Assembly (NCBI GenBank): GCA_033581555.1
Contig: JAVQSZ010000008.1
Location: 3,001-27,000 of the forward strand
Source of the DNA: Nitrososphaerota archaeon
Lineage (GTDB): Archaea; Thermoproteota; Nitrososphaeria_A; Caldarchaeales; Calditenuaceae
Reading direction: 5' to 3'
DNA length: 24,000 nucleotides
The number at the start of each line of letters is the position of its first letter. Position 1 is the first letter of the stretch. Shown in pieces: positions 1-20,150 of this stretch. The translations under genes were made by a program, and so were the position numbers. The notes below the pieces were generated by a model that saw nothing but the letters and a program-made list of their open reading frames with translations, was not told the origin of the DNA and did no database searches.

Positions 1-1049
1 TCCTCGACGAGCCGACCTCCGTGCTCACGCCACCTGAGATCGAGAGTTTCTTAGAATCCCTGAAGGCCCTCTCGAGGGAGAAGATCACCTTGGTCCCCTT
101 CGTGACCCACAAGCTCCCCGAAGTCTTCTCGATATGCGACAAGGTCACCATCTTAAGGAGGGGCAAGGTGGTCAAGACGCTCGACGTCAAGGAGACCACT
201 GCCAACCAGCTCGCTGAGTACATGGTCGGCAAGGAGGTCTCCCTCTCTATAGAGAGGCAGGACTCCATGTTAGGGCAGGTGGTCCTGAGGGTCGAGAATC
301 TCTCCGCGATGAACGACAAGGGGCTAATGGCCTTCAGCGGCGTCACCTTCTCACTGCGCGAGGGCGAGATTTTCGGCATAGCGGGCGTCAGCGGGAACGG
401 ACAGCACGAGCTGGCGGAGACCATCTTCGGCCTGAGGAGGCCCCTCTCCGGCAGGATCCTCTACAACGGTCGCGACATCACTAAGTCCTCGGTTCTCGAG
501 CGGCTACGGATGGGGATCGCCTACATTCCGCCAGAGCGGCTGGGGGTCGCTGCGATCGGCGAACTGAGCCTCGTCGACAACGTGCTGCTCGCGTACTATT
601 TCGAGGGCGCGGCGTCGAGGAACGGGTTCGTCAACTACAAGCTCGTAAAGGGTCTGACGGAACGGATCATCTCCGAGTACGGCATCGTCGCCCTCGGGCC
701 CGCGGCTAAGGCATCGCACTTGTCGGGCGGAAACCTGCAGAGGCTCATCCTCGGCCGCGTCCTCTCCAGGAACCCGAAGATCGTCATCGCAAATCTCCCG
801 ACGCAGGGGCTCGACGTGGCAGCCGCCCAGTACGTGAGGAGGAAGCTGATGGAGTGCAAGCAGCGCAGAGCCAGCGTGATCCTGATCTCGGAGGACCTCG
901 ACGAGATATTGCAACTCAGTGACAGAGTAGCTCCCATCTACGAGGGGCGTTTCGTTGACGTCCTCGAGAACGCGGCCCTCCGTAAGGAGGAGGTCGGTGC
1001 GATGATAGCTGGCGCCTACGCCGGGAGGGGGACGGGCCTTGCTCGGTGA
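1..1049 (+). CDS. ABC transporter ATP-binding protein, tandem-NBD type (BMP/CUT2-like nucleoside or sugar importer). The 5' end is truncated by the window edge.
   Basis: The frame is open from the window edge, and nt 3-23 read LDEPTSV (Walker B of the first NBD). The second NBD has GEIFGIAGVSGNGQHEL (a GxxGxGQ-type P-loop typical of RbsA/YufO-like proteins), the LSGGNLQRL signature and a PTQGLD Walker B. Two BPD_transp_2-type permeases follow directly. Confidence 0.9.
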   Translation, partial: LDEPTSVLTPPEIESFLESLKALSREKITLVPFVTHKLPEVFSICDKVTILRRGKVVKTLDVKETTANQLAEYMVGKEVSLSIERQDSMLGQVVLRVENLSAMNDKGLMAFSGVTFSLREGEIFGIAGVSGNGQHELAETIFGLRRPLSGRILYNGRDITKSSVLERLRMGIAYIPPERLGVAAIGELSLVDNVLLAYYFEGAASRNGFVNYKLVKGLTERIISEYGIVALGPAAKASHLSGGNLQRLILGRVLSRNPKIVIANLPTQGLDVAAAQYVRRKLMECKQRRASVILISEDLDEILQLSDRVAPIYEGRFVDVLENAALRKEEVGAMIAGAYAGRGTGLAR

Positions 1050-2121
1050 GGCCCACTTCAGGATCAAGCTGGAGAGGCTCCCAACCGTATCAGGTTGGAG
1101 GGCCGTCAGGGTATCGTTTTACTCGATAGCGTTGTCGTTCCTTCTGTTCAGCAGCGTGTTGATGTATGAAGGTTCCGATCCGCTCGTGGCTTATCAGAAC
1201 ATGTTCTCGTTCGCCTTCGATCCCAAGTTGGGACTTCCGCTGACCATTCATAGGTCCATGCTGATCCTCTTGTGTACCCTCGCGTTCATCGTCCCGTTGA
1301 GGGCGGGGCTCTGGAACGTCGGGATGGAGGGGCAGTTCTATCTCGGGACCATCGGAGCCTTCTTCTTTGCTTACACCTTCTCGACCTATCCCTCGGAGAT
1401 TCTGATACCCCTCATGATCTTGGGGGCGACGGGCGGAGGGGCGCTTTACGGGGCCATCGCGGGGTTCTTACGCGGTCGGTACAACGTCAACGAGGTGGTG
1501 GTGTTACTCATGCTCAACAACATAGCGTTCTGGATCGTGTACATGCTGGTGGTCGGCGGTCCGTGGGCGGGGATCGCTGAGTCGTCGAGCAGGCCGTTGC
1601 CCAAGTCTGCCCAGGCCCCGTTCATCTCCATAACGCCCTTCACGAGTTACCTCATCGTTGCCCTCGCGGTGCTCGTCTTCCTCCTCCTCACCAGGACGAC
1701 CTTCGGCTTCAAGCTCCGGGTCCTAGGACACAGCCCCGTGGCCGCGAAGATCGCCGGCATAGAGGAGTTCAAGATCTCTGTCCTCGTGATGAGCGCAGGG
1801 GGTGCTCTAGCTGGTCTAGCTGGCTACCACATGTGGGCGGGTGATCCGGCGTATTATATGATCCCGCGACCGGAGGCATACAAGGCGATAGGCGACCTGA
1901 CCTACTGGGGCATAATAATCGGGCTGGTCTGTCTGCTCAACCCCATTCCCGCAATACCGGCTTCCCTTTTCATGGGCTCTGTCATAGTCGGCTCGACCGT
2001 GCTGGTGAGGAGGCTACGGCTGCCCTTCGGGCTGGACTTCCTGCTGCTTGGGATCATCTCGATAACCTTCGCCGCCTTCCAGCTGTTCTACAACTATAGG
2101 ATCCGGGTGGTCAGGAGATGA
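1039..2121 (+). CDS. ABC transporter permease (BPD_transp_2 / YufP-NupP-like)
   Basis: 360-aa polytopic ORF containing GLWNVGMEGQFYLGTIGA, the motif typical of this permease family. The TTG start overlaps the ATPase stop by 11 nt, so the exact start is uncertain. Confidence 0.85.
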   Translation: MLGEAHFRIKLERLPTVSGWRAVRVSFYSIALSFLLFSSVLMYEGSDPLVAYQNMFSFAFDPKLGLPLTIHRSMLILLCTLAFIVPLRAGLWNVGMEGQFYLGTIGAFFFAYTFSTYPSEILIPLMILGATGGGALYGAIAGFLRGRYNVNEVVVLLMLNNIAFWIVYMLVVGGPWAGIAESSSRPLPKSAQAPFISITPFTSYLIVALAVLVFLLLTRTTFGFKLRVLGHSPVAAKIAGIEEFKISVLVMSAGGALAGLAGYHMWAGDPAYYMIPRPEAYKAIGDLTYWGIIIGLVCLLNPIPAIPASLFMGSVIVGSTVLVRRLRLPFGLDFLLLGIISITFAAFQLFYNYRIRVVRR

Positions 2122-3011
2122 TCGAGTTACCTCCTTCGCTCTGGCCCTTCACCACCAGGTTCTTAGAGGTCTCCTCGATCCTGCTCCTCGCGGCCGCCGG
2201 CGAGCTCCTCGCTCAGCGATCGGGCGTGATGAACGTAGGCATCGAGGGCCTCATGCTGTTCGGCGCCGCGACGTCGTTCATGACCGCCCAGCTCTTCGGT
2301 CCGCTCGCAGGGTTCATCGCGGGCTCGCTCGTGGGCGCCCTCCTAGGGCTCTTTCACGCCGTGATGTCGGTCTCGCTGAGGGTCAACCAGATCATCAGCG
2401 GAATGGGGGTCTGGCTGTTCGCGATGGGGTTCGTGACTTACTGGGCTGACAGGTATACCGGTCCTCTCCGGGCGTCGGTCCCGCGCATAGCCGGATTGAC
2501 CCCTGCCCTATTCATCGCGATCGCCGTGATTTTCACGATCTGGTTCGTGTTGAACAAGACGCACTTCGGCCTGAAAATACGGTCCGTGGGGGAGAACCCG
2601 GCAGCCGCCGAGGTCTCCGGTGTGAACGTCAGTAGGGTGAGGTATTTCTGCACGGTAGTCGGCGGCATGCTGGGCGGCCTTGCAGGATCGGTCCTGCTCC
2701 TCTCTTACCTCGGAGCCTGGAGTCATCTACCTACGAAAGGGCTCGGGTGGTTGGCGTTCGGGCTGGTCATGTTCTCGCTCTGGAGGCCTGGAATCCTGCT
2801 GGCTGGGGCGCTCGCCTTCGGCTTTGTCTGGCAGTTCGCGATCTCGCCAGAGTCCGTCTTCCCCGGATTCCCTGCTCCCCTGCCGGTCAACAGGATGCTC
2901 CCGTTCCTAATGACAGTCGTTATACTCACGATAATCTCGACTGAGCGTTTCAGGAGGAAATGGGCTCTGCTGAAACCAGAGGCGCTCGGACAGCCTTACA
3001 TAAAAGAGTGA
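2118..3011 (+). CDS. ABC transporter permease (BPD_transp_2 / YufQ-NupQ-like)
   Basis: 297-aa polytopic ORF containing GVMNVGIEGLMLFGAATSF. Its ATG overlaps the upstream stop as ATGA (2118-2121), which suggests translational coupling. Confidence 0.88.
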   Translation: MIELPPSLWPFTTRFLEVSSILLLAAAGELLAQRSGVMNVGIEGLMLFGAATSFMTAQLFGPLAGFIAGSLVGALLGLFHAVMSVSLRVNQIISGMGVWLFAMGFVTYWADRYTGPLRASVPRIAGLTPALFIAIAVIFTIWFVLNKTHFGLKIRSVGENPAAAEVSGVNVSRVRYFCTVVGGMLGGLAGSVLLLSYLGAWSHLPTKGLGWLAFGLVMFSLWRPGILLAGALAFGFVWQFAISPESVFPGFPAPLPVNRMLPFLMTVVILTIISTERFRRKWALLKPEALGQPYIKE

Positions 3012-3037: not shown

Positions 3038-4384
3038 TTACTTCAGCAACACTATTCCGTCGAGCATGAAGTTGAACCTGCCTAGGAGCCACTCGTCGGT
3101 CGGCATCTCCTTCGCGGGCTTCACCACGGTCCCCTTCGGAGGCACCTTCAGGTTGAGCTCCGGTATCTCGATGCCCTCGCCGCTGCTGACCAGCTCGTGC
3201 TCGTAGAACGGGTCCCAGGCTCCGCTCATCATCTGAGCCCTCCTGAGCTCGATGAGCTTCAGGACCCTCTCGGGGATGAGAGGTCTGGCCCGCGGGCTGA
3301 TCGCCTCGAGTCCCACCTTCATGTTGTTCTGCAGGTCGATCGCCAGCAACCTGGTCTGGCCCGGCATGATAGGGTTGTTCTCCGGGAGCGAGATGTGCGT
3401 GTTCATGCCGAGGAAGTAGATCCTGTCGGGGTTGGTAGTGCCCGCGAGGTACTCCTTCAGGATCCGGTCGAAGAGGACCTCCCACCTGGTGTCGAAGGAC
3501 ACGGCCACGGTGTCGGTGGTGGACCACTTGTAAAGCCCCACTATGTCCATGTCCTTCCCTACGAACCAGATCTTTTTCTCCTCCGCGACCCTGAGGGGCT
3601 CGACCGAGTCCGTGTAGTGGGTCAGGACGTCTACTCCGGCGTCCACCAGCGAGAGCGATACCTCCTTCTCCTTGGGCGGATCGAACCACTCGCCGACGTA
3701 CTTGATGTACAGCGTCGCGTTGGGGTTCGCGTCCTTTATCCCCAGGTAGAACGCGGCCATCCTCCTGAAGTTCTGCACGGCCGCCGGCCCCACCGCTATC
3801 CCGATCCTGTTCCTGCGCGTTATGGCGCCCGCGATCAGGCCCTCGAGGTACATCGCCTGGTACTGTCTGATGAAAACCCTCATGAAGTTCCTTCTCGAGG
3901 AGACGTCGCTCCCGACGATGCCGAGGAAGTAGACGTTGGGGTTTTCGTCGGCTATCCTGTGGAACGCGGGGACTGCTGCGGGTTCCCAGCTCCCGAAGAT
4001 CACGTTGGCCTTGCTGACGGTGATCAGGTCCCTAGCCGCCGATATCGGGTCCTTGCCCTTCAGGATAACGCCCTCGTCGTATACGTAGTCGAACCAGGGG
4101 TAGAGCTTCTTCAACCTCTCCGCGGCCATCACCTGGCGCCCGTCCCACGTCGAGCCCTCGACGTATCCCCCCAGGACCATCCCAAGGACGACCTTCCTGC
4201 CCGCCGGGGCCTCGCGGGCCACTGTCGTCGTGAAGGTCCTCGTCTCGGTCACCGTCCTTGCAGGAGCCGCAGAGCCTCCAGCGAAGTACCCCGCGACAGC
4301 TCCCACAACTCCCGCTCCAACAGCGGTCGCCGCGACCTTTCCAGCCGTAGTTATGGCCTCCCTTCTGGTTACCTTTCTATTCAC
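3038..4384 (-). CDS. BMP-family (Med/PnrA/TmpC-like) ABC transporter substrate-binding protein
   Basis: 448-aa ORF. The N-terminus MNRKVTRREAITTAGKVAATAVGAGVV looks like a twin-arginine-type signal or membrane anchor. The body shows a periplasmic-binding fold pattern resembling the BMP family (IGIAVGPAAVQNFRRMAAFYLGIKDANPNA..., DVLTHYTDS). It starts with GTG and is convergent with the ATPase/permease genes. Confidence 0.8.
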   Translation of the reverse strand: MNRKVTRREAITTAGKVAATAVGAGVVGAVAGYFAGGSAAPARTVTETRTFTTTVAREAPAGRKVVLGMVLGGYVEGSTWDGRQVMAAERLKKLYPWFDYVYDEGVILKGKDPISAARDLITVSKANVIFGSWEPAAVPAFHRIADENPNVYFLGIVGSDVSSRRNFMRVFIRQYQAMYLEGLIAGAITRRNRIGIAVGPAAVQNFRRMAAFYLGIKDANPNATLYIKYVGEWFDPPKEKEVSLSLVDAGVDVLTHYTDSVEPLRVAEEKKIWFVGKDMDIVGLYKWSTTDTVAVSFDTRWEVLFDRILKEYLAGTTNPDRIYFLGMNTHISLPENNPIMPGQTRLLAIDLQNNMKVGLEAISPRARPLIPERVLKLIELRRAQMMSGAWDPFYEHELVSSGEGIEIPELNLKVPPKGTVVKPAKEMPTDEWLLGRFNFMLDGIVLLK

Positions 4385-4427: not shown

Positions 4428-6752
4428 CTAATATCTTCGTCGATTAATAAATTCATAGAGCTTGTGGGGTTGCAGCGGGCTCTCGAGGGGGACGACGGCG
4501 TTGTCGAAGGCGTCCTGCACGGCTGAAGCGATGACCGCAGCTACCGGAATCGCCCCGGCCTCTCCAACGCCCTTCACGCCCAGCGGGTTGAGGGGGGACG
4601 GCGTCTCGATGTGTTTTATGGTTACCTCGGTCGGAGTCTCCAAAGCGGACGGAACGAGGTAATCGGCGAAGCTCGCGGTCAGAGGCTGACCGTTCTCGTC
4701 GTGCACGATCTCCTCGAGCAAGGAGAACCCCAGCCCGTTCGATAGACCTCCGAGGATCTGGCCTTCTACTATCACCGGATTTATGACTTTTCCACAGTCG
4801 TGGACGACTACCATCCTCAATATCTTAACGGCGCCCGTCTCTGGGTCTACCTCCACCTCCGCTGCGGCCCCTCCAGAGGAGAACACCGAGTGGACCGGGC
4901 TGAAGTACTTGGTGGCCTCGAGCCCCGGCTCCCGCTTTATCAGGCCTCTCAGGGGGCGAGAGCGCTCAGCGAGCTCACCAAGGCTAACGGACTTGTCAGG
5001 CACCCCCTTGACGTACACTCGTCCGCCCTCGAACTCCAAATCGTCGGGGCTGGTCTCGAAGATCTGCGCAGCCAGCTCTGCAGCCTTCCTCCTGACCTCC
5101 AGCGCCGCCAGGTAGACCGCGTTCCCGGCCACGGTGGCCGACCTGCTGGCGAACGTCCCAATCCCCCATGACATTTGGGCCGTGTCCCCGACGCTCACGT
5201 CCACGTCGTGCACGTCCACTCCCAGGACCTCTGAGACGATCTGAGCAAAGGTCGTGAACTGACCTTGACCCTGGGTCCCGACGCCAGTCGTGACGCTCAC
5301 CTTGCCCGACGGCGTCACCGTCACCCTTGCCATCTCGTAAGGACCTACCCCACTCCCCTCGACGTAAAGGGCTAGTCCGAGACCGACGAACCTGCCCTCC
5401 CTCCTGTACCTCTCCTTCCGCTCTGGCCATCTCCCGTAGTCTATCGTGTCGAGGAGCGTCTCGAGGAGGAGCGGGTAGTCGCCGCTGTCATACTTAACCG
5501 GCCCGCCGTCCTGATAGATTATGCCCGTGTCGTACGGGAACTCGTCGGGTTGAATGAGGTTCCGCCTCCTTACTTCAGCCCTGTCGAGTCCAAGCCTGTG
5601 TGCAGCTATGTCCATTATCCTCTCCATCACGTAAACGGCCTCCGGCCTTCCGGCACCTCTGACCGGACTTACGACGGTCTTGTTCGTGTAGACCGACGCG
5701 AACTCTACGTCGAACGCCGGAATTTTGTAAGGCCCTGGCATAGTCCCAGTCGTGATGATGGGCACCATTATCCCGTAAGGCGTGTACGCTCCCGTATCGA
5801 CTAGGAAACTGTCGCTCAGTCCCAGTATCTTCCCGTCCCTGCTAAAGGCCGCCTTCACGTAGTGAACCTGTATCCTCTGCTGGTTGGCCGCCATCATGTT
5901 CTCCCTTCTATCCTCTATCCACTTGACGGGACGGCCCAGCCTGATCGCTGCGAAGGGAACGAGGATCTCCTCGGGATAGAACAGCATTATCTTCGGACCG
6001 AACCCGCCGCCCACGTCTGGGGCTATCACCCTCACCCGATTCTCGGGGATTCCGAACAGCTTTGCAAGCCCGTTCCGGATCGGTATGGGAGCCTGAGTGG
6101 AGTCCCAGACCGTCAACGTGTCCGACCTCTCATCGTGGTAAGCCACCACGCCCCTGGTCTCTATGGACGCCCCCGCGCCCCTGTTGAAGACGATCCGCTG
6201 CTCTATCACGAGGTCTGCGCGCCTGAAGGCCTCGGAGACGTCTCCGACCCTCACCCTGTGACGGGCCGCTATGTTGTTGGGAACGTCGTCGTGAACCAGC
6301 GGAGACCCGGGCTGAATCGCCCTCTCAACGTCGACGACGGGTTCCAGCGGATCGTACTCCACGGATATCAGCTCCAGCGCGTCCCTCGCGATGTACCTGT
6401 CCTCGGCGACGACCATCGCGACCGGTTCCCCCACGTAACGCACCTTGTGCTTCGCCAGCGCGTAATGAGTCCTCATGTAAGGGATAGGATATTGGGGCAA
6501 TGGAGTGATCGAGGGGGGAAGAGGCCCGTTCAGGGCCCCCAAGTCCTCGGCCGTATAGACGGCCACCACCCCGTTCAGCCTCTCGGCCCCCGACTTGTCG
6601 ATCGATATTATCCTCGCGTGAGCGTGGGGACTCCTCAGGATCGCGGCGTAAAGCATCCGAGGGAGGACCACGTCATCAACGAACAGGCCCTTCCCCATTA
6701 GGAGCCTCCTGTCCTCCAATCTGGGCACGGAGGCTCCTATTACATTCCTCAT
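4428..6752 (-). CDS. Xanthine dehydrogenase / aldehyde oxidase / CoxL-family molybdopterin-binding (large) subunit
   Basis: 774-aa ORF. The N-terminus VPRLEDRRLLMGKGLFVDDV...MLYAAILRSPHAHARI is characteristic of this family. The active-site-loop region is VSPVRGAGRPEA, which is like the form-II AYRGAGR motif and not the form-I CODH VAYRCSFR motif. The C-terminal GVKGVGEAGAIP carries the conserved Glu. Confidence 0.92.
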   Translation of the reverse strand: MRNVIGASVPRLEDRRLLMGKGLFVDDVVLPRMLYAAILRSPHAHARIISIDKSGAERLNGVVAVYTAEDLGALNGPLPPSITPLPQYPIPYMRTHYALAKHKVRYVGEPVAMVVAEDRYIARDALELISVEYDPLEPVVDVERAIQPGSPLVHDDVPNNIAARHRVRVGDVSEAFRRADLVIEQRIVFNRGAGASIETRGVVAYHDERSDTLTVWDSTQAPIPIRNGLAKLFGIPENRVRVIAPDVGGGFGPKIMLFYPEEILVPFAAIRLGRPVKWIEDRRENMMAANQQRIQVHYVKAAFSRDGKILGLSDSFLVDTGAYTPYGIMVPIITTGTMPGPYKIPAFDVEFASVYTNKTVVSPVRGAGRPEAVYVMERIMDIAAHRLGLDRAEVRRRNLIQPDEFPYDTGIIYQDGGPVKYDSGDYPLLLETLLDTIDYGRWPERKERYRREGRFVGLGLALYVEGSGVGPYEMARVTVTPSGKVSVTTGVGTQGQGQFTTFAQIVSEVLGVDVHDVDVSVGDTAQMSWGIGTFASRSATVAGNAVYLAALEVRRKAAELAAQIFETSPDDLEFEGGRVYVKGVPDKSVSLGELAERSRPLRGLIKREPGLEATKYFSPVHSVFSSGGAAAEVEVDPETGAVKILRMVVVHDCGKVINPVIVEGQILGGLSNGLGFSLLEEIVHDENGQPLTASFADYLVPSALETPTEVTIKHIETPSPLNPLGVKGVGEAGAIPVAAVIASAVQDAFDNAVVPLESPLQPHKLYEFINRRRY

Positions 6753-6770
6753 ACGACGCCAGCTGCTGAT

Positions 6771-6803
6771 CCTTTTATTTATGTTTATTTTCTGATATAA
6801 TAG
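6771..6803. promoter_or_regulatory. AT-rich divergent promoter region between the Mo-enzyme gene (-) and the DUF2877-like gene (+)
   Basis: The sequence ccttttatttatgtttattttctgatataatag is the most AT-rich stretch nearby. The minus-strand reading ataaataaaa is centred about 25 nt upstream of the ATG at 6752. On the plus strand, ttttattta and gatataata are candidate boxes for the rightward gene. Confidence 0.5.
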
Positions 6804-6897
6804 CTTGCGATCGCACTTCGCCTCCGAAGCGGCCTCATACCTCTCTCCGCGAGAACCGCGCGCTCCACGGACTCCTTCTCAGGTGGGCCCCCGAGCT

Positions 6898-7803
6898 ATG
6901 GAACCGAGCTCGGGCGAACCTTTTTCCAGCGAGGGAGTGCGTTACGAGGCGATGACGTTCCGCGCGCTGACTCACGAGGAGGGATACAGGCTCCTGTCGG
7001 AGGGCGGTGGAACGGTTGAGGCTTTGGGAGACAGGGCATCGTATGTGATGACGCCTGTTGAAGAGGTCGTAATACTGACGGACCGGCCGCTGACGTGCTA
7101 TTCGGTCTCCTTCTTCGACGGCTGGAGGGACTTGAGGGGGATCATCGAGGAGGGTGATCGCGTCTCGGTCGAGCGATCGGCGCTGACGGTCGAAGGAAAG
7201 CTCCGGTTGCCGCTGAGGGTGCTGGGAGCTTGTCAGAGGGTATCGGGCTGCTCCGGACTGAGTCCTGAGTCCCTGAGCGCAGCGTATCGTATCTTCCGAG
7301 TGCTCGCCTCCGTCGATGAGCCAGACCCCGTCATCGAGCGGGGTGTGGAGATCCTCTCAAGCAGCACGAGCCTGATCGCGCTCCGCGAGTCTCTGAAGGA
7401 GGTTGTGGGCATGGGTAGAGGGTATACGCCGGTTGGCGACGACTTCGTCTCAGGAGTTATCATCGCCCTCAGGCTTCTTAACCGTGAACTCGACTTCTAT
7501 CCGCTGGTCGAGTACGCAAAATCTCACTCAAGGTGGCCCAGCTGGCGGATGATGGAGCACTCTCTGCACGGGTGCACGTTCTTTCCAGTAGCGCGCTTGT
7601 GTGCCTCCTTCACAAGCGGGTCGGACCCTATGCCTCACCTAACGAGAGGGTTGAGAGTTGGCAGCTCAACAGGAGTCGCCATACTGACAGGACTTCTAGA
7701 GACCCTTCACCTGTATTATAAGAGTTTATCAAGTATGTGTTTGAGTTCGTCTTCTATCTCTACAGGAGGCGTCCACTCGACGTCGACCACTTCGACTCCC
7801 TGA
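6898..7803 (+). CDS. DUF2877-like protein (YlbF/AllH family candidate)
   Basis: The motif VGMGRGYTPVGDDFVSGVIIAL, followed by VGSSTGVAILTGLL, matches my recollection of the DUF2877 signature (GxGxGxTPxGDDFxxG). The genomic context (FdrA and DUF1116 nearby) agrees. The track ORF opens at TTG 6805. I place the start at ATG 6898 because it is the first ATG, AGGTG sits 12 nt upstream, and GC3 is weaker before it. GTG 6883, ATG 6952 or TTG 6805 cannot be excluded. The last 30 or so residues are Ser/Thr-rich and lie antisense to ORF 7716-7871. Confidence 0.65.
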   Translation: MEPSSGEPFSSEGVRYEAMTFRALTHEEGYRLLSEGGGTVEALGDRASYVMTPVEEVVILTDRPLTCYSVSFFDGWRDLRGIIEEGDRVSVERSALTVEGKLRLPLRVLGACQRVSGCSGLSPESLSAAYRIFRVLASVDEPDPVIERGVEILSSSTSLIALRESLKEVVGMGRGYTPVGDDFVSGVIIALRLLNRELDFYPLVEYAKSHSRWPSWRMMEHSLHGCTFFPVARLCASFTSGSDPMPHLTRGLRVGSSTGVAILTGLLETLHLYYKSLSSMCLSSSSISTGGVHSTSTTSTP

Positions 7804-7871
7804 TCCCTGAGGCTATCGGAGAAAATCGATATACCGAGGCATAATACTTTTTTGACCTCATTCAGAGTCAT
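7716..7871 (-). CDS. 51-aa ORF resembling the detached C-terminal segment of FdrA-family proteins
   Basis: This ORF is not in the supplied track because it is too short. My hand translation is MTLNEVKKVLCLGISIFSDSLRDQGVEVVDVEWTPPVEIEDELKHILDKLL*. Its ATG (7871-7869) overlaps the FdrA TGA stop (7870-7868) as ATGA. The pattern G-[LI]-x-x-F-x-x-x-L-...-V-V-x-x-x-W-x-P matches what I recall of the extreme C-terminus of E. coli FdrA, which the 523-aa upstream ORF lacks. Confidence 0.6.
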   Translation of the reverse strand: MTLNEVKKVLCLGISIFSDSLRDQGVEVVDVEWTPPVEIEDELKHILDKLL

Positions 7872-9415
7872 GACACCTCACCCAATATGAAACTCTCGAA
7901 TAGATGATCTAACACCGACGCATCCTCCTTCGCGCAAGCGGCGGTGAATGCCGCAGCCATCGCGTTGGAGCTAGCGAGTATGAGAGGGTACTTCGCGAGC
8001 ATCGACGTCTGAGCCCACTGAGGATCCTCGCTGGTGCCGACGATCCTGATCGCAACCCTCTTACTCGCGTTGGCCTCCAACGCAGGCCCTATCTCCCCTA
8101 AGGTCCTAGAGGTTACGTCTTTCGGAGCTCCGTACCCGATGATTAAGTCAAGCGCGATCGATCCGGTCTCAGGCGACATCAGCTCCTGAGCTATCCGCCT
8201 GTTCCTCAGCGAGGGATCTATTATGGGATGAACCCTGCCAACGGTGAACTCCTCCGACCCGTAATCGACCACAGTTGCCCCCTTCGAGCGCAACGGGTCG
8301 TCGAGCTTTCTGGTCCAAGGCAGTCCTAGATTCGAGTGTACCTCGATTCCCGCCTCGTTCCACAGGAAGGCCGTCTCAGTCGCGAGCGTCCCGCCGCAAA
8401 AGAACCCACGAGGATATCTACCTCCGTCGACCTTCAGTTTGAGCGAGTCCACTTCCTTCTCAAGGGCTGAGAGGGCTCTGATGTAGATTTGAGGCGAAAT
8501 AAGAGAACAGGCTTTCAGCGCTGCTGCGTGTAAGGTTGAGAGCTGTGGATGATCGCTGATCTTCTCTTTATGTCCGAGCAGACATAGCAATAAGGGCTTG
8601 TTGATCCTTATATCTTCTAGAATTCGTCTCACAAGTTCCGCGTCTGACTGCTTAGCTAACAGCGCGACGACCTTCGTGTTCTTGTCCCTGTCCAGGAGCA
8701 TCAACGATTCACGCGTCATCAATCCGCCTACGTCTCTGGTCATGTCGCGTCCTCCCACACCGATCGCGTGGGAGATGCCCACGCCTAAGTCGTGCAGTAT
8801 GACCGACAGCTCCTGAATGCCCGAACCGGACGATGCGACGACTCCCACTGGCCCCCTGATGACCCTGTTTGCGAACCCGAAACCCACGCCCTCGATTATT
8901 GACGTCCCGGCTTCCGGCCCCATCACGAGGAGGTTCCTCGCGGCGGCCTCGCGCTTCATGGCCACCTCTACTTCTATCGGGACGTGGTCGCTGAAGACGA
9001 AGAGGTTGACTCCCTTCTCGAGGAGCTTGAACGCGACGTCCTTCACGTGATGTCCGGGGATCGATATCGACGCCATCCTTATGTCCGGGTTCTCGCGCAG
9101 GGCGTCTTCTACGCTCAGGTATCTGGCGGTTCGGGGCTTCACCTGGAACAGGACCTCTCTGGCGCTCTTCAGAACGTCCTCTGTTAGCCCGACTCCCTTG
9201 AGCGCAATCAGTATGTCGTTTGGCCCTGCACGGTCGCCCTCCGGCGTTAAGATCCCCTGCGACCTCAGGAGGTCCTTGTTGGCTTTGGTGGCCATGACGA
9301 CAGCGACCTCGATCACCCCTGGCAGCCTCTTGATCGCCTCTGAGGCCTCCATCAGCTGCACCGAATCCCGGTAGAGGCCCCGCACCACCAAGTTGATTAC
9401 ATCGACTGAACCCAC
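7868..9415 (-). CDS. fdrA: FdrA-family protein (succinyl-CoA-synthetase-alpha-like, 'acyl-CoA synthetase FdrA' / AllF-like)
   Basis: The motifs YRDSVQLM, LLVMGPEAGTSII, ASSGSGIQEL, SHAIGVGGRDMTRDVGG and EFTVGRVHPIIDPSLRN closely parallel E. coli FdrA as I recall it. The track ORF extends to TTG 9439, but that codon abuts the TATA box at 9441-9450. GTG 9415 gives an N-terminus matching homologues in length and sits about 30 nt from the TATA centre. Confidence 0.88.
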   Translation of the reverse strand: MGSVDVINLVVRGLYRDSVQLMEASEAIKRLPGVIEVAVVMATKANKDLLRSQGILTPEGDRAGPNDILIALKGVGLTEDVLKSAREVLFQVKPRTARYLSVEDALRENPDIRMASISIPGHHVKDVAFKLLEKGVNLFVFSDHVPIEVEVAMKREAAARNLLVMGPEAGTSIIEGVGFGFANRVIRGPVGVVASSGSGIQELSVILHDLGVGISHAIGVGGRDMTRDVGGLMTRESLMLLDRDKNTKVVALLAKQSDAELVRRILEDIRINKPLLLCLLGHKEKISDHPQLSTLHAAALKACSLISPQIYIRALSALEKEVDSLKLKVDGGRYPRGFFCGGTLATETAFLWNEAGIEVHSNLGLPWTRKLDDPLRSKGATVVDYGSEEFTVGRVHPIIDPSLRNRRIAQELMSPETGSIALDLIIGYGAPKDVTSRTLGEIGPALEANASKRVAIRIVGTSEDPQWAQTSMLAKYPLILASSNAMAAAFTAACAKEDASVLDHLFESFILGEVS

Positions 9416-9440
9416 GTCAGTCGCGCTCTGGAGGTGCAAT

Positions 9441-9450
9441 ATTTATATTA
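9441..9450. promoter_or_regulatory. Shared, near-palindromic TATA box for the divergent fdrA-like and cyclase genes
   Basis: The sequence atttatatta is the only AT-rich element in the short divergent gap. GTG 9415 (minus strand) lies about 30 nt from its centre and ATG 9478 (plus strand) about 32 nt. This fits archaeal TATA-to-TSS spacing with leaderless mRNAs in both directions. Confidence 0.55.
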
Positions 9451-9477
9451 GTGTCCCGAGGCGTGATGATCGCGACC

Positions 9478-10275
9478 ATGTCTGCCGTCGTAGATTTATC
9501 AAAGGTGAAAATATATGACTTGTCCCAGCCGACCAGCGCCAGAGCTCCGCCGTTCATGTATTACCCTCCGTTCAAATGGACGTGGATCAAGAGGCTTGGC
9601 GAGCATGGCGTCAACGCGATGTACATCGAGGGGCCGCTTCACACGGGCACACACTTCGACGGCCAGCTGCACTTCATGACCGGAGGGAAGGACATAGCCA
9701 GCATCGACGTCAGCTACTTCATCGGTGAGGGGGTCATAATCGACATCAGCAAGCACGTCGGCGACTACGACATCTATACTAGCGACGTGATCGAAGAAGC
9801 GGCGAGGGAGGCGGGCCTTCAGATAAAGCCCGACGACATACTCCTCATCTACACGGGTTACAGCCGCTACGCATGGTGCGGCCCGGAGCCCGACGAGGTG
9901 CGGTACATGTGCAAGCACCCGGGTCCGGACATCAGGTTCGCGAGGTGGTGCATAGAGAAGAGGATCAGGTGGCTCGGCGTCGACGCGATGTCACAGGACC
10001 ATCCGCTGAACACCGTTGTCAGGAGGGCGAGGCCCGACCTGGTGGCTGAGGCTGAGAGGAAGTGGGGCAAGAAGATCGACGAGGTGTTGCCCTGGCCCGA
10101 GAACTACCAGGTGATGCACGTCATGCTCTTCCCGAGGATGATTCTTCACGTCGAGAACCTGGGCGGGGAGATCGAGAAGGTCGCCAACAGGAGGTGCCTG
10201 ATCATAGCGCTGCCGTTCAAGTTCGAGGGGGGAGAGAGCGCGTACTGCCGAGTGGTGGCCCTCACCGCTGAATGA
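9478..10275 (+). CDS. Cyclase-family protein (PF04199-type metal-dependent amidohydrolase, kynurenine formamidase / isatin hydrolase-like)
   Basis: HTGTHFDGQLHF matches the family's HxGTHxDxxxH metal-binding motif. LGVDAMSQDHP and HVENL are also family-like. The track ORF opens at GTG 9451, directly abutting the TATA box, so ATG 9478 (MSAVVDLSKVKIYDLSQP...) is the likely start. Confidence 0.8.
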   Translation: MSAVVDLSKVKIYDLSQPTSARAPPFMYYPPFKWTWIKRLGEHGVNAMYIEGPLHTGTHFDGQLHFMTGGKDIASIDVSYFIGEGVIIDISKHVGDYDIYTSDVIEEAAREAGLQIKPDDILLIYTGYSRYAWCGPEPDEVRYMCKHPGPDIRFARWCIEKRIRWLGVDAMSQDHPLNTVVRRARPDLVAEAERKWGKKIDEVLPWPENYQVMHVMLFPRMILHVENLGGEIEKVANRRCLIIALPFKFEGGESAYCRVVALTAE

Positions 10276-10281
10276 GCGGGC

Positions 10282-11544
10282 ATGGAGGCGCTCAAAGAGG
10301 AGATCGAGAAGGCGAACAACAAGTGCCTCGACCTGATGATGGAGGCGAGGCCCCTTCTCGTGGACGTCGTAGAGGCGCGGAAGGTCATACCATTCCTCGC
10401 GAAGGAAAACTGCCTCACGCACGCGGGACCGCCGATCGACTGGGAGAGGGCCAGTGGTCCCCTGAGGGGTGCGATAATCGGGGCCGCGATCTACGAAGGA
10501 TGGGCCGAGAACGAGGAGGAGGCGACCAGGCTCGCGGAGAGGGGTGAGATAGTCCTCGAGCCCAACCACCACCACTCGGCGGTCGGTCCGATGGCTGGCG
10601 TCATATCCCCGTCGATGAAGGTCTTCGTGGTCAGGGATAGCGACCTGAGGACTTACAGTAACCTCAACGAGGGACTTGGGAAGGTCCTGAGATACGGCGC
10701 CTACTCCCCCGACGTGTTAGAACGCCTCCGGTTCCTGAACGAGGTCGTCGGCTCGGTTCTCTCGGAAGCGGTGAAGGAGCACGTCCGCGATAAGGGGGGT
10801 ATAGACTTGAAGAACATAATGGCTCAGGCGGTCCACATGGGCGACGAGTGTCACAACCGGAACGTCGCGTCAACGTCTCTGTTCTACAGAGAGATTTCGC
10901 CCTATGTTATCGACGTGACTGATAGAGAGACGGCCAAAACGGTGCTCAGGACGATAGACTCCAACATCTTGTTCTTCCTGAACATGGCGATGGCGGCCTG
11001 TAAGCTGATGGCTGATAGGGCCCACGGCGTCAGGCACAGCACGATCGTGACCGCGATTGCGAGGAACGGCACGGACATCGGCATCAGGGTGAGTGGGCTC
11101 GGGGACCGGTGGTTCACGGCTCCGGCGACTGTACCGAAGGGGCTGTACTTCCCCGGATTCGGGGAGTCTGACGCTAACCCCGACATAGGCGACAGCACGA
11201 TAACCGAGACCGTCGGACTCGGTGCGGCTGCTCTCGCAGCTAGCCCGGCGATCGTGAAGTTCATCGGCGGGGACGCGAAGACAGCGATCGAGATCACCGA
11301 CAGGATGGCGAAGATCTGTCACGGCAGGCACCGTTACTTCACGATCCCCTACCTCGAGTTCGAGGGTACCCCCACTGGCATAGACATCAGGAGGGTGCTG
11401 CGACTCGGTCTTCCGCCCGTTGCCGACACGGGCATAGCGCACAGGGAGGCAGGGGTGGGGCAGATAGGCGCAGGGATCGTCGAGCTGCCGATCGAGCCCT
11501 TCAAACAGGCCTTGAGGAAGTACGCCGAGGTCTACGGGGTTTGA
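10282..11544 (+). CDS. DUF1116-family protein (YlbE/AllG-like)
   Basis: The 420-aa length matches the roughly 419 aa of E. coli YlbE. The N-terminal region ...VIPFLAKENCLTHAGPPIDWERASGPLRGAIIGAAIYEGWA resembles the DUF1116 family as I recall it. The start is 6 nt after the cyclase stop, so the two genes form an operon. Confidence 0.7.
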   Translation: MEALKEEIEKANNKCLDLMMEARPLLVDVVEARKVIPFLAKENCLTHAGPPIDWERASGPLRGAIIGAAIYEGWAENEEEATRLAERGEIVLEPNHHHSAVGPMAGVISPSMKVFVVRDSDLRTYSNLNEGLGKVLRYGAYSPDVLERLRFLNEVVGSVLSEAVKEHVRDKGGIDLKNIMAQAVHMGDECHNRNVASTSLFYREISPYVIDVTDRETAKTVLRTIDSNILFFLNMAMAACKLMADRAHGVRHSTIVTAIARNGTDIGIRVSGLGDRWFTAPATVPKGLYFPGFGESDANPDIGDSTITETVGLGAAALAASPAIVKFIGGDAKTAIEITDRMAKICHGRHRYFTIPYLEFEGTPTGIDIRRVLRLGLPPVADTGIAHREAGVGQIGAGIVELPIEPFKQALRKYAEVYGV

Positions 11545-11631: not shown

Positions 11632-11719
11632 TGGACCGGGCGGGATTCGAACCCGCGACCTCCCGCAATTTGGAATGCCGTCTCGCCAAGCGGGCGATCT
11701 ACCACTGATCTACCGGCCC
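11632..11719 (-). tRNA. tRNA-Ala (anticodon GGC) with a 16-nt intron in the anticodon loop; CCA not encoded
   Basis: The minus strand reads GGGCCGG-TA-GATC-AGTGGTA-GATC-G-CCCGC-TTGGCG[intron region AGACGGCATTCCAAATT]GCGGG-AGGTC-GCGGG-TTCGAAT-CCCGC-CCGGTCC-A. All four stems pair. The G3:U70 Ala identity pair is present. The intron contains CCAA, complementary to TTGG of the loop/anticodon. Confidence 0.9.
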
Positions 11720-16417: not shown

Positions 16418-16765
16418 GTGGTGATCTTGTCGTCCCCGGAGGGAGTCTCTCGTCCCAAGAGGTCCACCAAGCAGCCCAAGCCCCGGCCCGCGGCGAAGCA
16501 GGAGCCCGCGAAGGCACCGGAGGCCGAGCGGGTGGTCGTGGTGGAGCTGATGGGTTGGAGGATCGAGCACGAGCTCCTCGACAGCGCCGAGGCCGAGCAG
16601 GTCCTCAATCGCTACAAGGCCACCCGCAACCAGCTCCCGAAGATCCTGGTCACGGACCCGGTCGTGAGGAGGATGGGCGCGAAGCCCGGCGATATCATAA
16701 AAATCACGAGGACCTCGCCTACCGCAGGGTTGACCGTCTACTATAGGGTGGTGGAGGAGGCTTGA
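16418..16765 (+). CDS. rpoH: DNA-directed RNA polymerase subunit H (Rpo5)
   Basis: The C-terminal 70 or so residues, EHELLDSAEAEQVLNRYKATRNQLPKILVTDPVVRRMGAKPGDIIKITRTSPTAGLTVYYRVV, are canonical RpoH. The start is uncertain: GTG 16418 adds a roughly 44-aa Lys/Pro/Ala-rich extension, and ATG 16550 is the alternative. Confidence 0.92.
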   Translation: MVILSSPEGVSRPKRSTKQPKPRPAAKQEPAKAPEAERVVVVELMGWRIEHELLDSAEAEQVLNRYKATRNQLPKILVTDPVVRRMGAKPGDIIKITRTSPTAGLTVYYRVVEEA

Positions 16766-19700
16766 AGGTCAGACCATCTCCTGAGTCCCTCACCCACGAA
16801 GAGCTCTGGGCCGTCGCGAAGGCCATCGTCGAGGAGGAGGGCCTGATCGCCCACCACTTCAGGTCCTACGAGTACTTCGTCAGGGAGGGGCTCGAGAGGC
16901 TCCTCAAGAGCATGAGCCCCCAGGAGATCAAGACGAAGCAGGGCGTCGCGTACCTCTACTTCAGGGATCCCGAGATAGGCCCGCCGACGATAAGGGAAGT
17001 CGACGGGTCAGAGAGGCACTACGTAACGCCCAACGAGTGCAGGCTCAGGAACCTCAGCTACACTGCTCCGATCTACGTCAGGATCACGCTCAAGCTCGAC
17101 GACCAGGAGATCGTCAAGAGCGAGAGGGTCCAGATCGGAGTCCTGCCGATCATGGTGAAGTCCTCTGTCTGTCCCCTCAGCAGGATGACCGACGAGGAGC
17201 TCGTCGCGATCGGAGAGGACCCCGCCGACCCCGGGGGTTACTTCATCATCAACGGGTCCGAGAGGGTCATAGTAGCTATTGAGGACCTCGCTCCCAACAA
17301 GGTCCTGATCACGTCGAAGGAGCAGGACGGAGGCGTCCAGTACTCGGCCGCTGTGATCTCGATCTCCTACGGGAGGCAGAGTAAGGTCGAGGTCACCTAC
17401 AAGCCCGGCGGGCCGGTGAGGGTCTTCTTCGCGAAGATCCACAAGGGCATACCGCTGATCGTCATGCTGAGGGCCCTCGGGATGGAGAACGACAAGCAGA
17501 TCGCGGAGTTCGTCTCGCCGCTCCCGGAGGTCCAGGAGATGCTGATCGAGAGCTTCAGGGAGGCGGAGGGGATCGAAGACAAGAAGGAGGCCCTGAGGTT
17601 CCTGGGGAACAGGGTCGCCTTCGGGTACGCGGAGGAGTACAGGATCGAGAGGGCGGAGCAGATGCTCGACAACAACTTCCTCATCCACCTCGGCACGAGT
17701 AAGGACGCCAGGTTCAAGAAGGCGGTGATGCTCTGCGACATAGTCGGAAAGCTCCTCGAGACGGCCGCGGGCATCAGGAAGCCTGACGACAAGGACCATT
17801 ACGCCAACAAGAGGCTCAAGCTCGAGTCGCAGCTACTGACGGAGCTCTACAGGTCCGCCCTCAACAAGCTCATCAGGGACATCAGGTACCAGCTCGAGAG
17901 AATACTCATCACCAGACAGCCCGTCTCCCTCTCCACGTTCATAAGGCCCGGGATAGTGAACGACGTGGTCCTGACGGCCTTCTCGACGGGCAACTGGCCA
18001 GGTGGGAGGGTAGGAGTGACGCAGATACTCAACAGGACCAACTACCTCGCGACCGTCAGCCACCTGAGGAGGGTCCAGAGCCCGCTGAGCAGGAGCCAGC
18101 CCCACTTCGAGGCCAGGGACCTCCACGGGACCCACTGGGGGAGGATATGTCCGGCCGAGACGCCCGAGGGAGCGAACGCGGGTCTGGTCAAGAACCTGGC
18201 CTTGGGCGCCGAGGTCACGGTCCCGCTCCTGAAGGACGACGAGGAGGCCCTCAGGGAGAAGCTCTGGAAGCTCGGGCTGGTCAGCTGGACGTCGATCATC
18301 GAGAAGAAGACCGCGGCGAGGAGGAAGGAGCTCAGGACCAAGGTTTACATCAACGACGAGCTGATCGGGTACCACCCTGACGGGAAGAAGCTCGTGAGGG
18401 AGCTGAAGAGGATGAGGAGGGGCGGCGAGGTAAACCAGTCCGTCAACGTCCTCCTCAGGGAGTACGAGCACCTCTCAGAGGTCTACATCTACTCCGACGA
18501 GGGAAGGGTCAGGAGGCCCCTGGTGGTCATCGAGGACAGCGAGGTCAAGCTCAAGCGGCACATGGCCGAGTCCGTCGCCCAGGGGACGCTGAAGGCGAGG
18601 GACCTCGCAGCGATGGGAGTGATCGAATACCTAGACGCCAGCGAGGAGGACAACGCCTACGTCGCCCTGAGTCCAGAGGACGTCACCAAGTCCCATGACT
18701 ACCTCGAGATAAGCCCGCTGATGATGATGGGCGTCGTTGCCGGGATCATCCCCTTCAGCAACCACAACCAGTCGCCGAGGAACGTCTACGAGGCCTCGAT
18801 GGCGAAGCAGGCCCTCGGCCTCCCCGCGATCTCGTACCCGGTCAGGACCGACAGCAGGCTCCACGTGATGATCTACCCGCAGAAGGCCCTCGTCAAGACG
18901 AAGGCGATGGACCTCCTCAGGCTCGACAGGAGACCGATAGGTCAGAACTTCGTCGTCGCGGTGCTGACGGGATACGGCTACAACATCGAGGACGCGGTAG
19001 TGCTGAACAGGTCCGCGATCGAGAGGGGGCTCGCGGTCACGATGAGCTACAGGACCTATGAGGTCGAGGCCAGGCAGTACCTCGGCGGCGAGAAGGACAG
19101 GGTCGCGATACCGGACCCGAACGTCAGGGGCTACAGGGGCGAGCAGTACTACAGGGTCCTCGACAGGGACGGCCTCGCGGTCCCCGAGTCCGAGGTCACC
19201 GACGGTATGGTCCTCGTCGGGGTCGTCAGCCCACCCAGGTTCATGGAGGAGTACGTCAGGACCCCGGCCAGGGAAATGGTCTGGAGGGACGCCTCAGAGG
19301 CGGTGAGGCCCTCCGAGGTCGGGATCGTTGACGAGATATTCGCCTCGAGGAACGTCGAGGGCAACGCGCTCATCAAGCCCCGGGTCAGGGCCCTCTGCTT
19401 CCCCGAGATCGGCGACAAGTTCGCTTCCAGGCACGGCCAGAAGGGGGTGATCGGAATGGTCTTCCAGCAGGCCGACCTGCCCTACACCGAGAGCGGGATC
19501 GTCCCGGACCTCATCATCAACCCGCACGCGTTCCCGTCCAGGATGACAGTCGGCCAGCTGATCGAGAGCCTCGCGGGTAAGCTAGCGGCCCTCAAGGGCG
19601 AACCTGTCGACGGGTCTCCGTTCGTCGGGAAGGGCCTCGAGGAGATCAAGAGGGAGCTGGAGGAGCTGGGGTTCAAGAGCACCGGGACCGAGGTGATGTA

Positions 19701-20148: not shown

Positions 20149-20150
20149 AG

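Follow-up and report, generated by a model that had tools for sequence, protein, structure and literature searches.

A conserved AllFGH-like gene cluster with a cyclase-family hydrolase and a molybdenum-hydroxylase subunit in archaea and bacteria: a candidate module for N-heterocycle degradation

The Escherichia coli AllF-AllG-AllH proteins constitute the oxamic transcarbamylase (OXTCase), which is encoded with the carbamate kinase AllK in the allFGHK operon and has been purified and assayed; it phosphorolyses the N-acyl-urea oxalurate into carbamoyl phosphate and oxamate (Kim and Kim, 2024; PMC11326118), so that the genetic assignment quoted in the initial annotation of the DNA described here says less than is known. 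The window, i.e., the whole 24-kb stretch of DNA analysed, stems from a metagenome-assembled genome (MAG) within the Caldarchaeales (Nitrososphaerota, formerly "Aigarchaeota") and encodes an AllFGH-like trio of FdrA (AllF), AllG and AllH subunits together with a cyclase-family amidohydrolase. The two systems are built from the same three families and presumably share their chemistry, conversion of an N-acyl-urea into carbamoyl phosphate and an amide. They differ in what surrounds the trio: the E. coli genes are co-directional, fused to the carbamate kinase gene and adjoin allB, allC, allD and allE, whereas the window has three transcription units, neither a kinase nor allantoin genes, and in addition the cyclase, a molybdenum (Mo) hydroxylase subunit and an ATP-binding cassette (ABC) importer. 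As judged from gene neighbourhoods, known families meet here in a conserved but functionally uncharacterised setting that extends over both prokaryotic domains.

E. coli K-12 has a second trio of the AllH/AllF/AllG type, yahE, yahF and yahG, similar to that of the window, in the yahE-yahJ cluster (L165 3926-10508; L-numbers are labels of the collected homologous loci and contigs). YahJ belongs to Amidohydro_3, the Pfam family of a cytosine-deaminase-like protein encoded in many cyclase-containing clusters (see below), and yahI is a carbamate-kinase-like gene; unlike the window, the yah cluster contains neither a cyclase nor a Mo hydroxylase. yahEFG are still listed in the y-ome, and no functional study of the cluster was found in the literature searched. 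In archaea, allFGHK with bmpA-nupABC has been mentioned in passing for a Nitrososphaerales MAG outside the ammonia-oxidizing archaea (PMC12625717), which amends the initial annotation, to whose author no description from this domain was known. In the literature searched, outside of which lie subscription-only papers, there is no description of the cyclase/Mo-hydroxylase context or of the Caldarchaeales cluster, and nothing that gives a barbiturase or biuret hydrolase a functional link to this family of enzymes.

Pfam searches, with scores that exceed the gathering cutoffs, bear out the initial annotation of four intact open reading frames (ORFs) in the AllH/DUF2877, FdrA, PF04199 and AllG/DUF1116 families (Table 1), and by sequence the trio consists of AllF, AllG and AllH family members. 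Alignments to the E. coli proteins are full-length for FdrA and AllG and motif-level for AllH. AllG (PF06545, 301 bits, E 4e-90) shares 46% of its residues with E. coli AllG in a full-length alignment and 43% with YahG, matches a solved, uncharacterised structure (PDB 3CLQ, E 1e-102), and has 118 positions that are at least 90% conserved among 77 relatives; its motifs include HMGDECHNR and DxGDSxITET. FdrA matches PDB 3DMY (E 3e-53) and NCBIfam PRK06091 (322 bits, E 5e-96, under the cutoff of 433), as a divergent member would; its identity is 36% to YahF (263 bits) and 31% to E. coli AllF. AllH scores 59 bits with PF11392, for which the cutoff is 25 (E 9e-16); its residues G171 to D182 form the motif G-x-G-x-G-x-TP-x-x-DD, which 53 family members, E. 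coli AllH and YahE among them, keep without variation. A homologue search with AllH returns five close Caldarchaeales relatives only, which were used to locate the Candidatus Caldarchaeum subterraneum locus. Since FdrA is nearer to YahF, AllG is marginally nearer to AllG, and the archaeal cyclase-type AllG proteins group in a clade separate from E. coli AllG in a neighbour-joining tree, the trio cannot be called an orthologue of the E. coli OXTCase.

The AlphaFold2 model of AllH has a predicted local distance difference test (pLDDT) score of 80, and Foldseek retrieves no solved fold at E <= 0.001. The protein ends in a Ser/Thr-rich low-complexity tail of about 22-25 residues (window 7750-7803; pLDDT below 50 for residues 280-301), which is largely kept in close relatives, is absent in more distant family members and may be a lineage-specific extension.

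FdrA is composed of an N-terminal AllF domain, CoA-binding and flavodoxin-like domains similar to those of the succinyl-CoA synthetase (SCS) alpha subunit, and a C-terminal Ligase_CoA domain. The HAIGVGGRD loop, which had been noticed in the first reading of the sequence, is indeed there (residues 216-224). It had been taken as the mark of a phosphohistidine-type machine, a reading that the loop does not support: residues 99-282 of FdrA align with the two SCS alpha domains such that HAIGVGGRD corresponds to the x-IGIGGD loop of SCS, and the His of HAIGVGG is replaced by Gln in 43 of 60 FdrA family members. FdrA further departs from SCS alpha in having no alignable equivalent of the GHAGA phosphohistidine loop and no ATP-grasp partner. 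The sole invariant His of the family, H396, resides in the motif G-R-x-H-P-M-I-D within the extra C-terminal domain; a PDB search with this domain alone finds FdrA itself only and so offers no link between the role of H396 and SCS.

Whether the trio belongs with its neighbours was addressed from both ends. In the forward direction, the 80 genome loci with AllG closest to that of the window were collected, the window proteins were mapped onto them and the neighbouring ORFs were clustered; in the reverse direction, metagenome contigs were scanned with a cyclase alignment, and those with at least 3 kb on both sides of the gene were counted as well-flanked (n = 28). The cyclase subfamily is present in 30 of the 80 AllG loci. 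Nineteen are archaeal (Caldarchaeales, Desulfurococcales, Pyrodictiaceae, a "Thaumarchaeota" MAG, Ca. Scotarchaeum) and 11 bacterial (Chloroflexia, Frackibacter, Fuchsiella, Symbiobacterium, Halanaerobiales and other Bacillota). Starting from the cyclase, AllG or FdrA is recovered in 27/28 well-flanked metagenome loci and Mo-hydroxylase subunits in 20/28; among the genome loci, Mo subunits accompany 19 of the 30 cyclase loci as compared to 5 of the 50 others. Of the 55 loci whose upstream sequence is long enough, 34 have AllG directly upstream of the cyclase on the same strand, and the most frequent order is FdrA-AllG-cyclase-MoFAD-MoFeS-MoL, the last three being the FAD, FeS and large subunits of the Mo hydroxylase. 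The linkage proposed in the initial annotation is therefore strongly conserved, and the refuting condition set there, a linkage kept in no related genome, does not apply; its presentation as an archaeal peculiarity does not hold, as Chloroflexota, Bacillota, Halanaerobiales and many metagenome contigs have the same FdrA-AllG-cyclase-Mo cluster.

A full Caldarchaeales version is the compact twelve-gene cluster of Ca. C. subterraneum: Amidohydro_3, ThiS-like protein, FeS, FAD and MoL subunits, carboxyltransferase, a second MoL, a 246-residue GNAT-like protein, AllH (+), FdrA (-) and cyclase-AllG (+). Its trio is split over three transcription units and joined to the cyclase in the same layout as in the window, just as first described there. 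The window has neither the FAD and FeS subunits nor the carboxyltransferase, GNAT-like protein, deaminase, TudS or AtzD homologue. Together, a fuller cluster with an identical three-unit layout and the linkage seen in both directions indicate that the genes of the window are a reduced version of a widespread module, which is not archaeon-specific and is conserved in Caldarchaeales, Desulfurococcales, other Thermoproteota and several bacterial phyla. That the four genes and the Mo hydroxylase make up one functional module can be predicted with high confidence.

The cyclase is a PF04199 protein (123 bits against a cutoff of 23, E 1e-35) of the kynurenine-formamidase/isatin-hydrolase fold family, with KynB and isatin hydrolase structures matched at E 1e-8 to 1e-7. 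The binuclear metal ligands of KynB are well established. Residues H55, H59, D61, H65, H214 and E226 of the cyclase, invariant in its subfamily, align to the six KynB metal positions, and the HxGTHxDxxxH motif is shared with KynB and isatin hydrolase; since all six ligands are kept, the protein is likely active as a hydrolase. It is not a kynurenine formamidase orthologue: TIGR03035 scores 44 bits against a cutoff of 223, with only the N-terminal 80 residues matching. The subfamily, whose archaeal and bacterial members are 45-83% identical, also differs from KynB and isatin hydrolase in an insert of about 40 residues with invariant residues of its own (D169, S172, D174, H175, P176) and in a genomic context unrelated to tryptophan or indole catabolism. 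By its distribution, the subfamily is dedicated to AllG/FdrA clusters. A 332-residue ORF that clustered as "conserved" is an artefact and was discarded, since it reads the cyclase gene in antisense.

With its Pfam domains Ald_Xan_dh_C, MoCoBD_1 and MoCoBD_2, the Mo large subunit is a xanthine-oxidase superfamily member in a broad sense only. The first reading of the flanks thus stands in part: the Bmp importer is present, and the supposed xanthine dehydrogenase (XDH)-family Mo subunit proves to be CoxL/quinoline-oxidoreductase-like instead. XdhA gives 438 bits where its cutoff is 780, the XDH structures of the PDB reach about 157 bits, and the window has no gene for a FAD or FeS subunit; xanthine dehydrogenase was rejected on these grounds. 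The best NCBIfam models are CODH_aero_grp5 (908 bits, cutoff 950) and then glyceraldehyde dehydrogenase alpha (698 bits), and the best PDB matches, at 490-530 bits, are CoxL (8UEM), 6-hydroxypseudooxynicotine dehydrogenase (7DQX) and quinoline 2-oxidoreductase (1T3Q). Form I CoxL proteins have the active-site motif AYxCSFR. The window protein has a VRGAGR loop and scores 577 bits with TIGR02416 (cutoff 991), which disqualifies it as a form I aerobic CO dehydrogenase. This loop and the place of the gene in a nucleobase-type catabolic cluster make an N-heterocycle hydroxylase the more likely identity, rather than a CO dehydrogenase; multiple CoxL copies have been counted as aerobic CO dehydrogenases in Caldarchaeales genome papers (PMC10547907). 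Related Mo large subunits are encoded in L005 (12873-15239) and L166 (2881-5232 and 6829-9147), and clusters of the Ca. C. subterraneum type have two different Mo large subunits for one FAD and FeS pair only.

The company kept by the other AllFGH-type trios among the 80 genome loci is informative as to what the cyclase may do. In context A (8 loci: L033, L035, L037, L040, L049, L053, L056, L066, each with its AllG match near 10001-11240), a ring-opening amidohydrolase of the AtzD/TrzD type, whose score exceeds the equivalog cutoff for cyanuric acid hydrolase, is found with PucR, a xanthine/uracil permease, carbamate kinase and sometimes uracil phosphoribosyltransferase; this arrangement suggests phosphorolytic use of a ring-opened N-acyl-urea in Bacillota and some archaea. 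Context B (19 loci, including L038, L041, L042, L048, L055, L059-L062, L069, L079, L081 and L082) combines a BiuH-like isochorismatase-family hydrolase, two copies of a 514-residue protein and carbamate kinase. Upstream of FdrA, the order is a GntR or PucR regulator, the BiuH-like hydrolase and the two tandem proteins of about 514 residues, a tightly linked family that matches nothing in Pfam or NCBIfam, followed by AllH-FdrA-AllG and carbamate kinase. Context C (30 loci) has the cyclase, with Mo-hydroxylase subunits. The cyclase never occurs together with an AtzD or BiuH-like hydrolase in the 80 loci, as expected if each hydrolase supplies a different N-acyl-urea.

The hydrolases of contexts A and B have known relatives that produce or use N-acyl-ureas, for instance carboxybiuret, biuret or ureidomalonate. 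Given these partners, we infer that complexes of the AllFGH type cleave N-acyl-ureas in general and that a different hydrolase feeds them from upstream in each context, the cyclase filling that role in context C. In tblastn searches with the E. coli proteins, allB, allC, allD and allE are found in none of the 80 genome loci, making the E. coli allantoin context the exception among its relatives; single allB or allC matches occur in 3 of 80 metagenome loci. Within the 24-kb window, Pfam and tblastn with the E. coli proteins detect neither carbamate kinase nor allB/C/D/E homologues, as originally stated, and because the surroundings differ from the E. coli allantoin cluster, the different substrate that was also suggested then is likely.

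We propose that an imported nucleobase (or nucleoside-derived heterocycle) would be hydroxylated beside a ring nitrogen by the Mo enzyme to give a cyclic imide, that the cyclase-family hydrolase would open this ring to a linear N-acyl-urea, and that the AllFGH-like complex would take off the ureido group as carbamoyl phosphate, leaving an amide. Our confidence in the order of steps (hydroxylate, open the ring, cleave the ureide) is moderate; for this reading as a whole, in which uracil or thymine is only the best candidate substrate, we put the probability at roughly 0.45. In the fuller clusters, the carbon skeleton would proceed to a carboxylated acyl-CoA and a biotin-dependent decarboxylase, in some cases with OAD_beta, a membrane protein of the Na+-pumping type.

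The evidence on the substrate comes from accessory genes, counted over 111 cyclase-type loci (genome and metagenome). A PF01039 carboxyltransferase, for which the best models are methylmalonyl-CoA decarboxylase alpha (mmdA) and malonate decarboxylase beta/gamma, is present in 15, and a complete decarboxylase (alpha, OAD_gamma, biotin carrier, OAD_beta) lies inside the cluster in two bacterial loci, L073 and L115, and in one of the Desulfurococcaceae, L013; these three are a Halanaerobiales MAG, a related metagenome contig and a Desulfurococcaceae MAG. Xanthine/uracil permeases are found in 20 loci, others having Bmp-type ABC importers. A cytosine-deaminase-like Amidohydro_3 protein, about 24% identical to YahJ and scoring below all equivalog cutoffs, is encoded in 13, and a TudS-like desulfidase adjoins the Mo subunit in the nearest relatives (L007, L008, L085-L087, L090). 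Mo-cofactor maturation genes recur as well; type III CoA-transferases occur in 12/111 loci, CN-hydrolases in 8, and a thiolase-like protein with its DUF35 partner in 4. Uracil or thymine is the simplest substrate that would account for a carboxylated acyl-CoA intermediate, enzymes that convert cytosine and thiouracil to uracil, and a ureide-cleaving complex in one cluster. The earlier emphasis on purines is accordingly not borne out, the Mo subunit being far below the XdhA models and the relatives' accessory genes pointing to pyrimidines; a pyrimidine substrate in particular is nonetheless a tentative assignment, held at less than even odds.

Two further accessory observations concern the relatives. 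A 246-residue protein with an invariant QHELGG motif is encoded beside AllH or FdrA in the fuller cyclase-type clusters, namely in L005 (5808-6548, minus strand), L166 (9197-9937, minus strand) and 17 further loci, the window not among them; its similarity to GNAT proteins is weak (seen in 4 of 10 members with a best E of 0.0016; the PDB gives 0.57) and amounts to a hint. An amidase-signature gene near two bacterial clusters was considered as a malonamidase and dropped, since it is the GatA gene of gatCAB; gatC-gatA-gatB is located just downstream of the cluster in the Halanaerobiales-type loci L045 (17901-21151) and L063 (13948-17113), probably by coincidence.

The closest described parallel is the oxidative pyrimidine pathway of Rhodococcus, which consists of uracil/thymine dehydrogenase, barbiturase and ureidomalonase (mentioned in PMC3758960 and PMC4051656). 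By analogy, Mo-dependent hydroxylation of uracil, hydrolytic ring opening and ureidomalonate cleavage would be common to the two routes. The PF04199 hydrolase would, however, replace the AtzD/TrzD-family barbiturase, which is absent from the window and never beside the cyclase in the 80 loci, and the ureido group would leave as carbamoyl phosphate instead of being released as urea by hydrolysis. The candidate route would run from uracil or thymine via (5-methyl)barbiturate and ureido(methyl)malonate to carbamoyl phosphate and (methyl)malonamate, and then to (methyl)malonyl-CoA. An undescribed oxidative pyrimidine route of this kind, common to thermophilic archaea and anaerobic bacteria and defined by a CoxL-like hydroxylase, a cyclase in place of barbiturase, AllFGH-type phosphorolysis and a (methyl)malonyl-CoA exit through a biotin-dependent decarboxylase, is conceivable, with the odds clearly against it at present.

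Several observations weigh against the hydroxylation, ring-opening and ureide-cleavage scheme. The main difficulty is the anti-correlation with carbamate kinase: the gene is adjacent in 3-4 of the 30 cyclase loci as opposed to 33-36 of the 50 others, and is present in 2 of the 28 well-flanked metagenome cyclase loci; none lies within 10 kb of the cluster in the Caldarchaeales relatives L004-L008 and L166. Carbamoyl phosphate would then have to be used anabolically, or another part of the genome would have to encode the kinase. It is equally conceivable that the cyclase follows AllFGH, as an amidase on the amide product. The argument for pyrimidines draws on relatives, the window itself offering uptake, one Mo subunit, the hydrolase and the trio, and PucR, Bmp proteins and NCS2 permeases fit purines as well as pyrimidines. 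Shared ancestry among the loci means that the association counts overstate their independence.

The same genes can be read otherwise. With AllG 46% identical to its E. coli namesake, the trio could be a canonical oxamate carbamoyltransferase acting on purine/allantoin-derived oxalurate, a dispersed copy of the E. coli pathway in which the cyclase would hydrolyse oxamate to oxalate and ammonia. Bmp importers and PucR regulators suit purines, alpha-keto amides are substrates of the isatin hydrolases to which the cyclase is related, and a type III CoA-transferase, best matched by CoA:oxalate CoA-transferase (397 bits, below cutoff), lies beside AllG and the cyclase in the bacterial loci L045, L063, L068 and L077 and in about eight metagenome loci. 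The dearth of allB/C/D/E in the window and in genome and metagenome loci, the closer kinship of FdrA to YahF than to AllF, a Mo subunit that is not XDH-like, the PF01039 biotin-dependent decarboxylase, which works on malonyl-type acyl-CoAs and not on oxalyl-CoA, and the infrequent linkage to carbamate kinase make this reading quite unlikely. Another reading starts from the hydroxylase: its nearest structural relatives hydroxylate N-heterocycles as diverse as quinoline and pseudooxynicotine, so the same logic could serve a hydantoin/imidazolone, parabanate, a creatinine-derived ring, a triazine-like compound or a modified base. The cytosine-deaminase-like family also includes creatinine and guanine deaminases, the scores here being below every equivalog cutoff, and sister trios occur with cyanuric-acid-type and biuret-type hydrolases. 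Another heterocycle is on balance unlikely, given that uracil or thymine more simply explains a biotin-dependent acyl-CoA decarboxylase, a TudS-like desulfidase and xanthine/uracil permeases.

The scarcity of carbamate kinase next to the cyclase would be explained if the complex made no carbamoyl phosphate and used CoA instead, either in the reaction N-acyl-urea + CoA -> acyl-CoA + urea or in an acyl-CoA synthetase-like one, so as to feed CoA-dependent enzymes. FdrA retains SCS-alpha-like CoA-binding and Ligase_CoA domains, and genes for CoA-dependent proteins (carboxyltransferase, type III CoA-transferase, thiolase-like protein with DUF35) recur in the clusters. Yet the sole characterised family member forms or consumes carbamoyl phosphate independently of CoA (PMC11326118); a partner of the ATP-grasp or nucleotide-binding kind is missing, genes for urease or urea amidolyase are not seen in the clusters, and the most complete bacterial operons, L073 and L115, have carbamate kinase in addition to the decarboxylase, which renders CoA chemistry improbable. 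Chance juxtaposition of the cyclase, Mo subunit and transporter with an unrelated, scrambled trio, as the three transcription units and the absence from the window of several partners seen in other clusters might hint, is effectively refuted by a linkage that is kept in both search directions across two domains, and is also at odds with the 6-nt cyclase-AllG gap and the conserved shared promoter element described below. Ring hydroxylation followed by ring opening and N-acyl-urea cleavage is thus the reading that we favour, at the strength given above.

The arrangement of the cluster in the window is summarised in Table 1.

Table 1. Features of the AllFGH-like cluster and its borders (window coordinates).
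Feature	Position	Strand	Evidence and remarks
ABC importer ATPase	21-1049	+	Pfam ABC_tran; 5' end cut by window edge
Two BPD_transp_2 permeases of ABC importer	1039-2121, 2118-3011	+	Pfam; type that partners Bmp/PnrA binding proteins
Bmp/PnrA-like substrate-binding protein (nucleoside/nucleobase-type family)	3038-4384	-	Pfam PF02608, E 3e-24
Mo-hydroxylase large subunit, CoxL form-II/quinoline-oxidoreductase-like	4428-6752	-	Pfam, NCBIfam, PDB
AT-rich divergent spacer between Mo-subunit gene and allH, with probable promoters (inferred)	6753-6897		Sequence reading
AllH/DUF2877 subunit, 301 aa	6898-7803 (ORF from 6805)	+	Pfam PF11392
FdrA/AllF subunit, 515 aa	7868-9415 (ORF to 9439)	-	Pfam, NCBIfam, PDB 3DMY
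fdrA/cyclase divergent spacer, 62 nt	9416-9477		TATA-like element ATATTTATAT at 9441-9450
Cyclase-family two-metal amidohydrolase	9478-10275	+	Pfam PF04199
AllG/DUF1116 subunit, 420 aa	10282-11544	+	Pfam PF06545
tRNA-Ala(GGC) gene, right-hand cluster boundary	11632-11719	-	ARAGORN + Rfam

The gene starts match independent gene calls on the source contigs (e.g., allH 6898-7803 on L001), where the ATPase is called as a 516-residue protein that runs past the locus end. GCA_026413725.1 and two hot-spring sequencing runs have contigs that encode proteins identical to those of the window; the nearest genome locus, from a Candidatus Caldarchaeales MAG, has 91% AllG identity. Importer genes also flank the cluster in L004-L006, and the Bmp gene adjoins the Mo subunit in L004-L006, L085-L087 and L090 too. 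The 6-nt gap reported in the initial annotation is confirmed: position 10275 is the last of the cyclase stop codon and 10282 the first of the AllG ATG, and the two genes are probably co-transcribed. The TATA box that it placed between the divergent fdrA and cyclase genes is likewise found, and ATATTTATAT is invariant across five Caldarchaeales-type loci while the remaining spacer sequence has diverged. The element sits about 26-28 nt from the fdrA and cyclase start codons alike; from this spacing and from its invariance in a diverging spacer, it is reasonable to suppose that a single TATA-like element drives two leaderless transcripts as a bidirectional promoter. Scans for bacterial sigma-70 promoters and terminators give nothing above shuffled expectation, as expected for an archaeon.

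To the right of the tRNA-Ala gene, unrelated housekeeping genes follow: a DUF4234 membrane protein, an S49 peptidase, TIM and RNA polymerase. The tRNA-Ala(GGC) gene is 88 nt long even though its Rfam match spans all 71 model positions, which implies about 17 extra nt, probably from an archaeal tRNA intron. The rpoH-rpoB-rpoA operon (16418-16765, 16762-20148 and 19977-23942, plus strand) encodes an unsplit RNA polymerase subunit A, with Rpb1 domains 1-5 in one frame of 1321 residues; its true start is probably near 20150. In most archaea subunit A is split into A' and A'', and the unsplit form fits Thaumarchaeota/Aigarchaeota. The G+C content is 0.56-0.58 over window positions 7001-10000, which hold allH, fdrA and the cyclase gene, and 0.60-0.67 elsewhere in the window; a Chloroflexia AllG (L058) branches with the archaeal cyclase-type clade. 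Together, these two observations hint that the module has moved between domains.

AllFGH was identified only in 2024, with a single E. coli substrate, and its relatives sit in at least three other conserved contexts. If the scheme favoured here is true, AllFGH-type complexes would be general N-acyl-urea phosphorylases, oxalurate being one of several substrates, and the AtzD- and BiuH-linked clusters point the same way. The cluster provides a portable set of genes, four in the window and twelve in Ca. C. subterraneum, with which the idea of an N-acyl-urea phosphorylase and of a missing route of nucleobase breakdown in thermophilic archaea may be put to the test.

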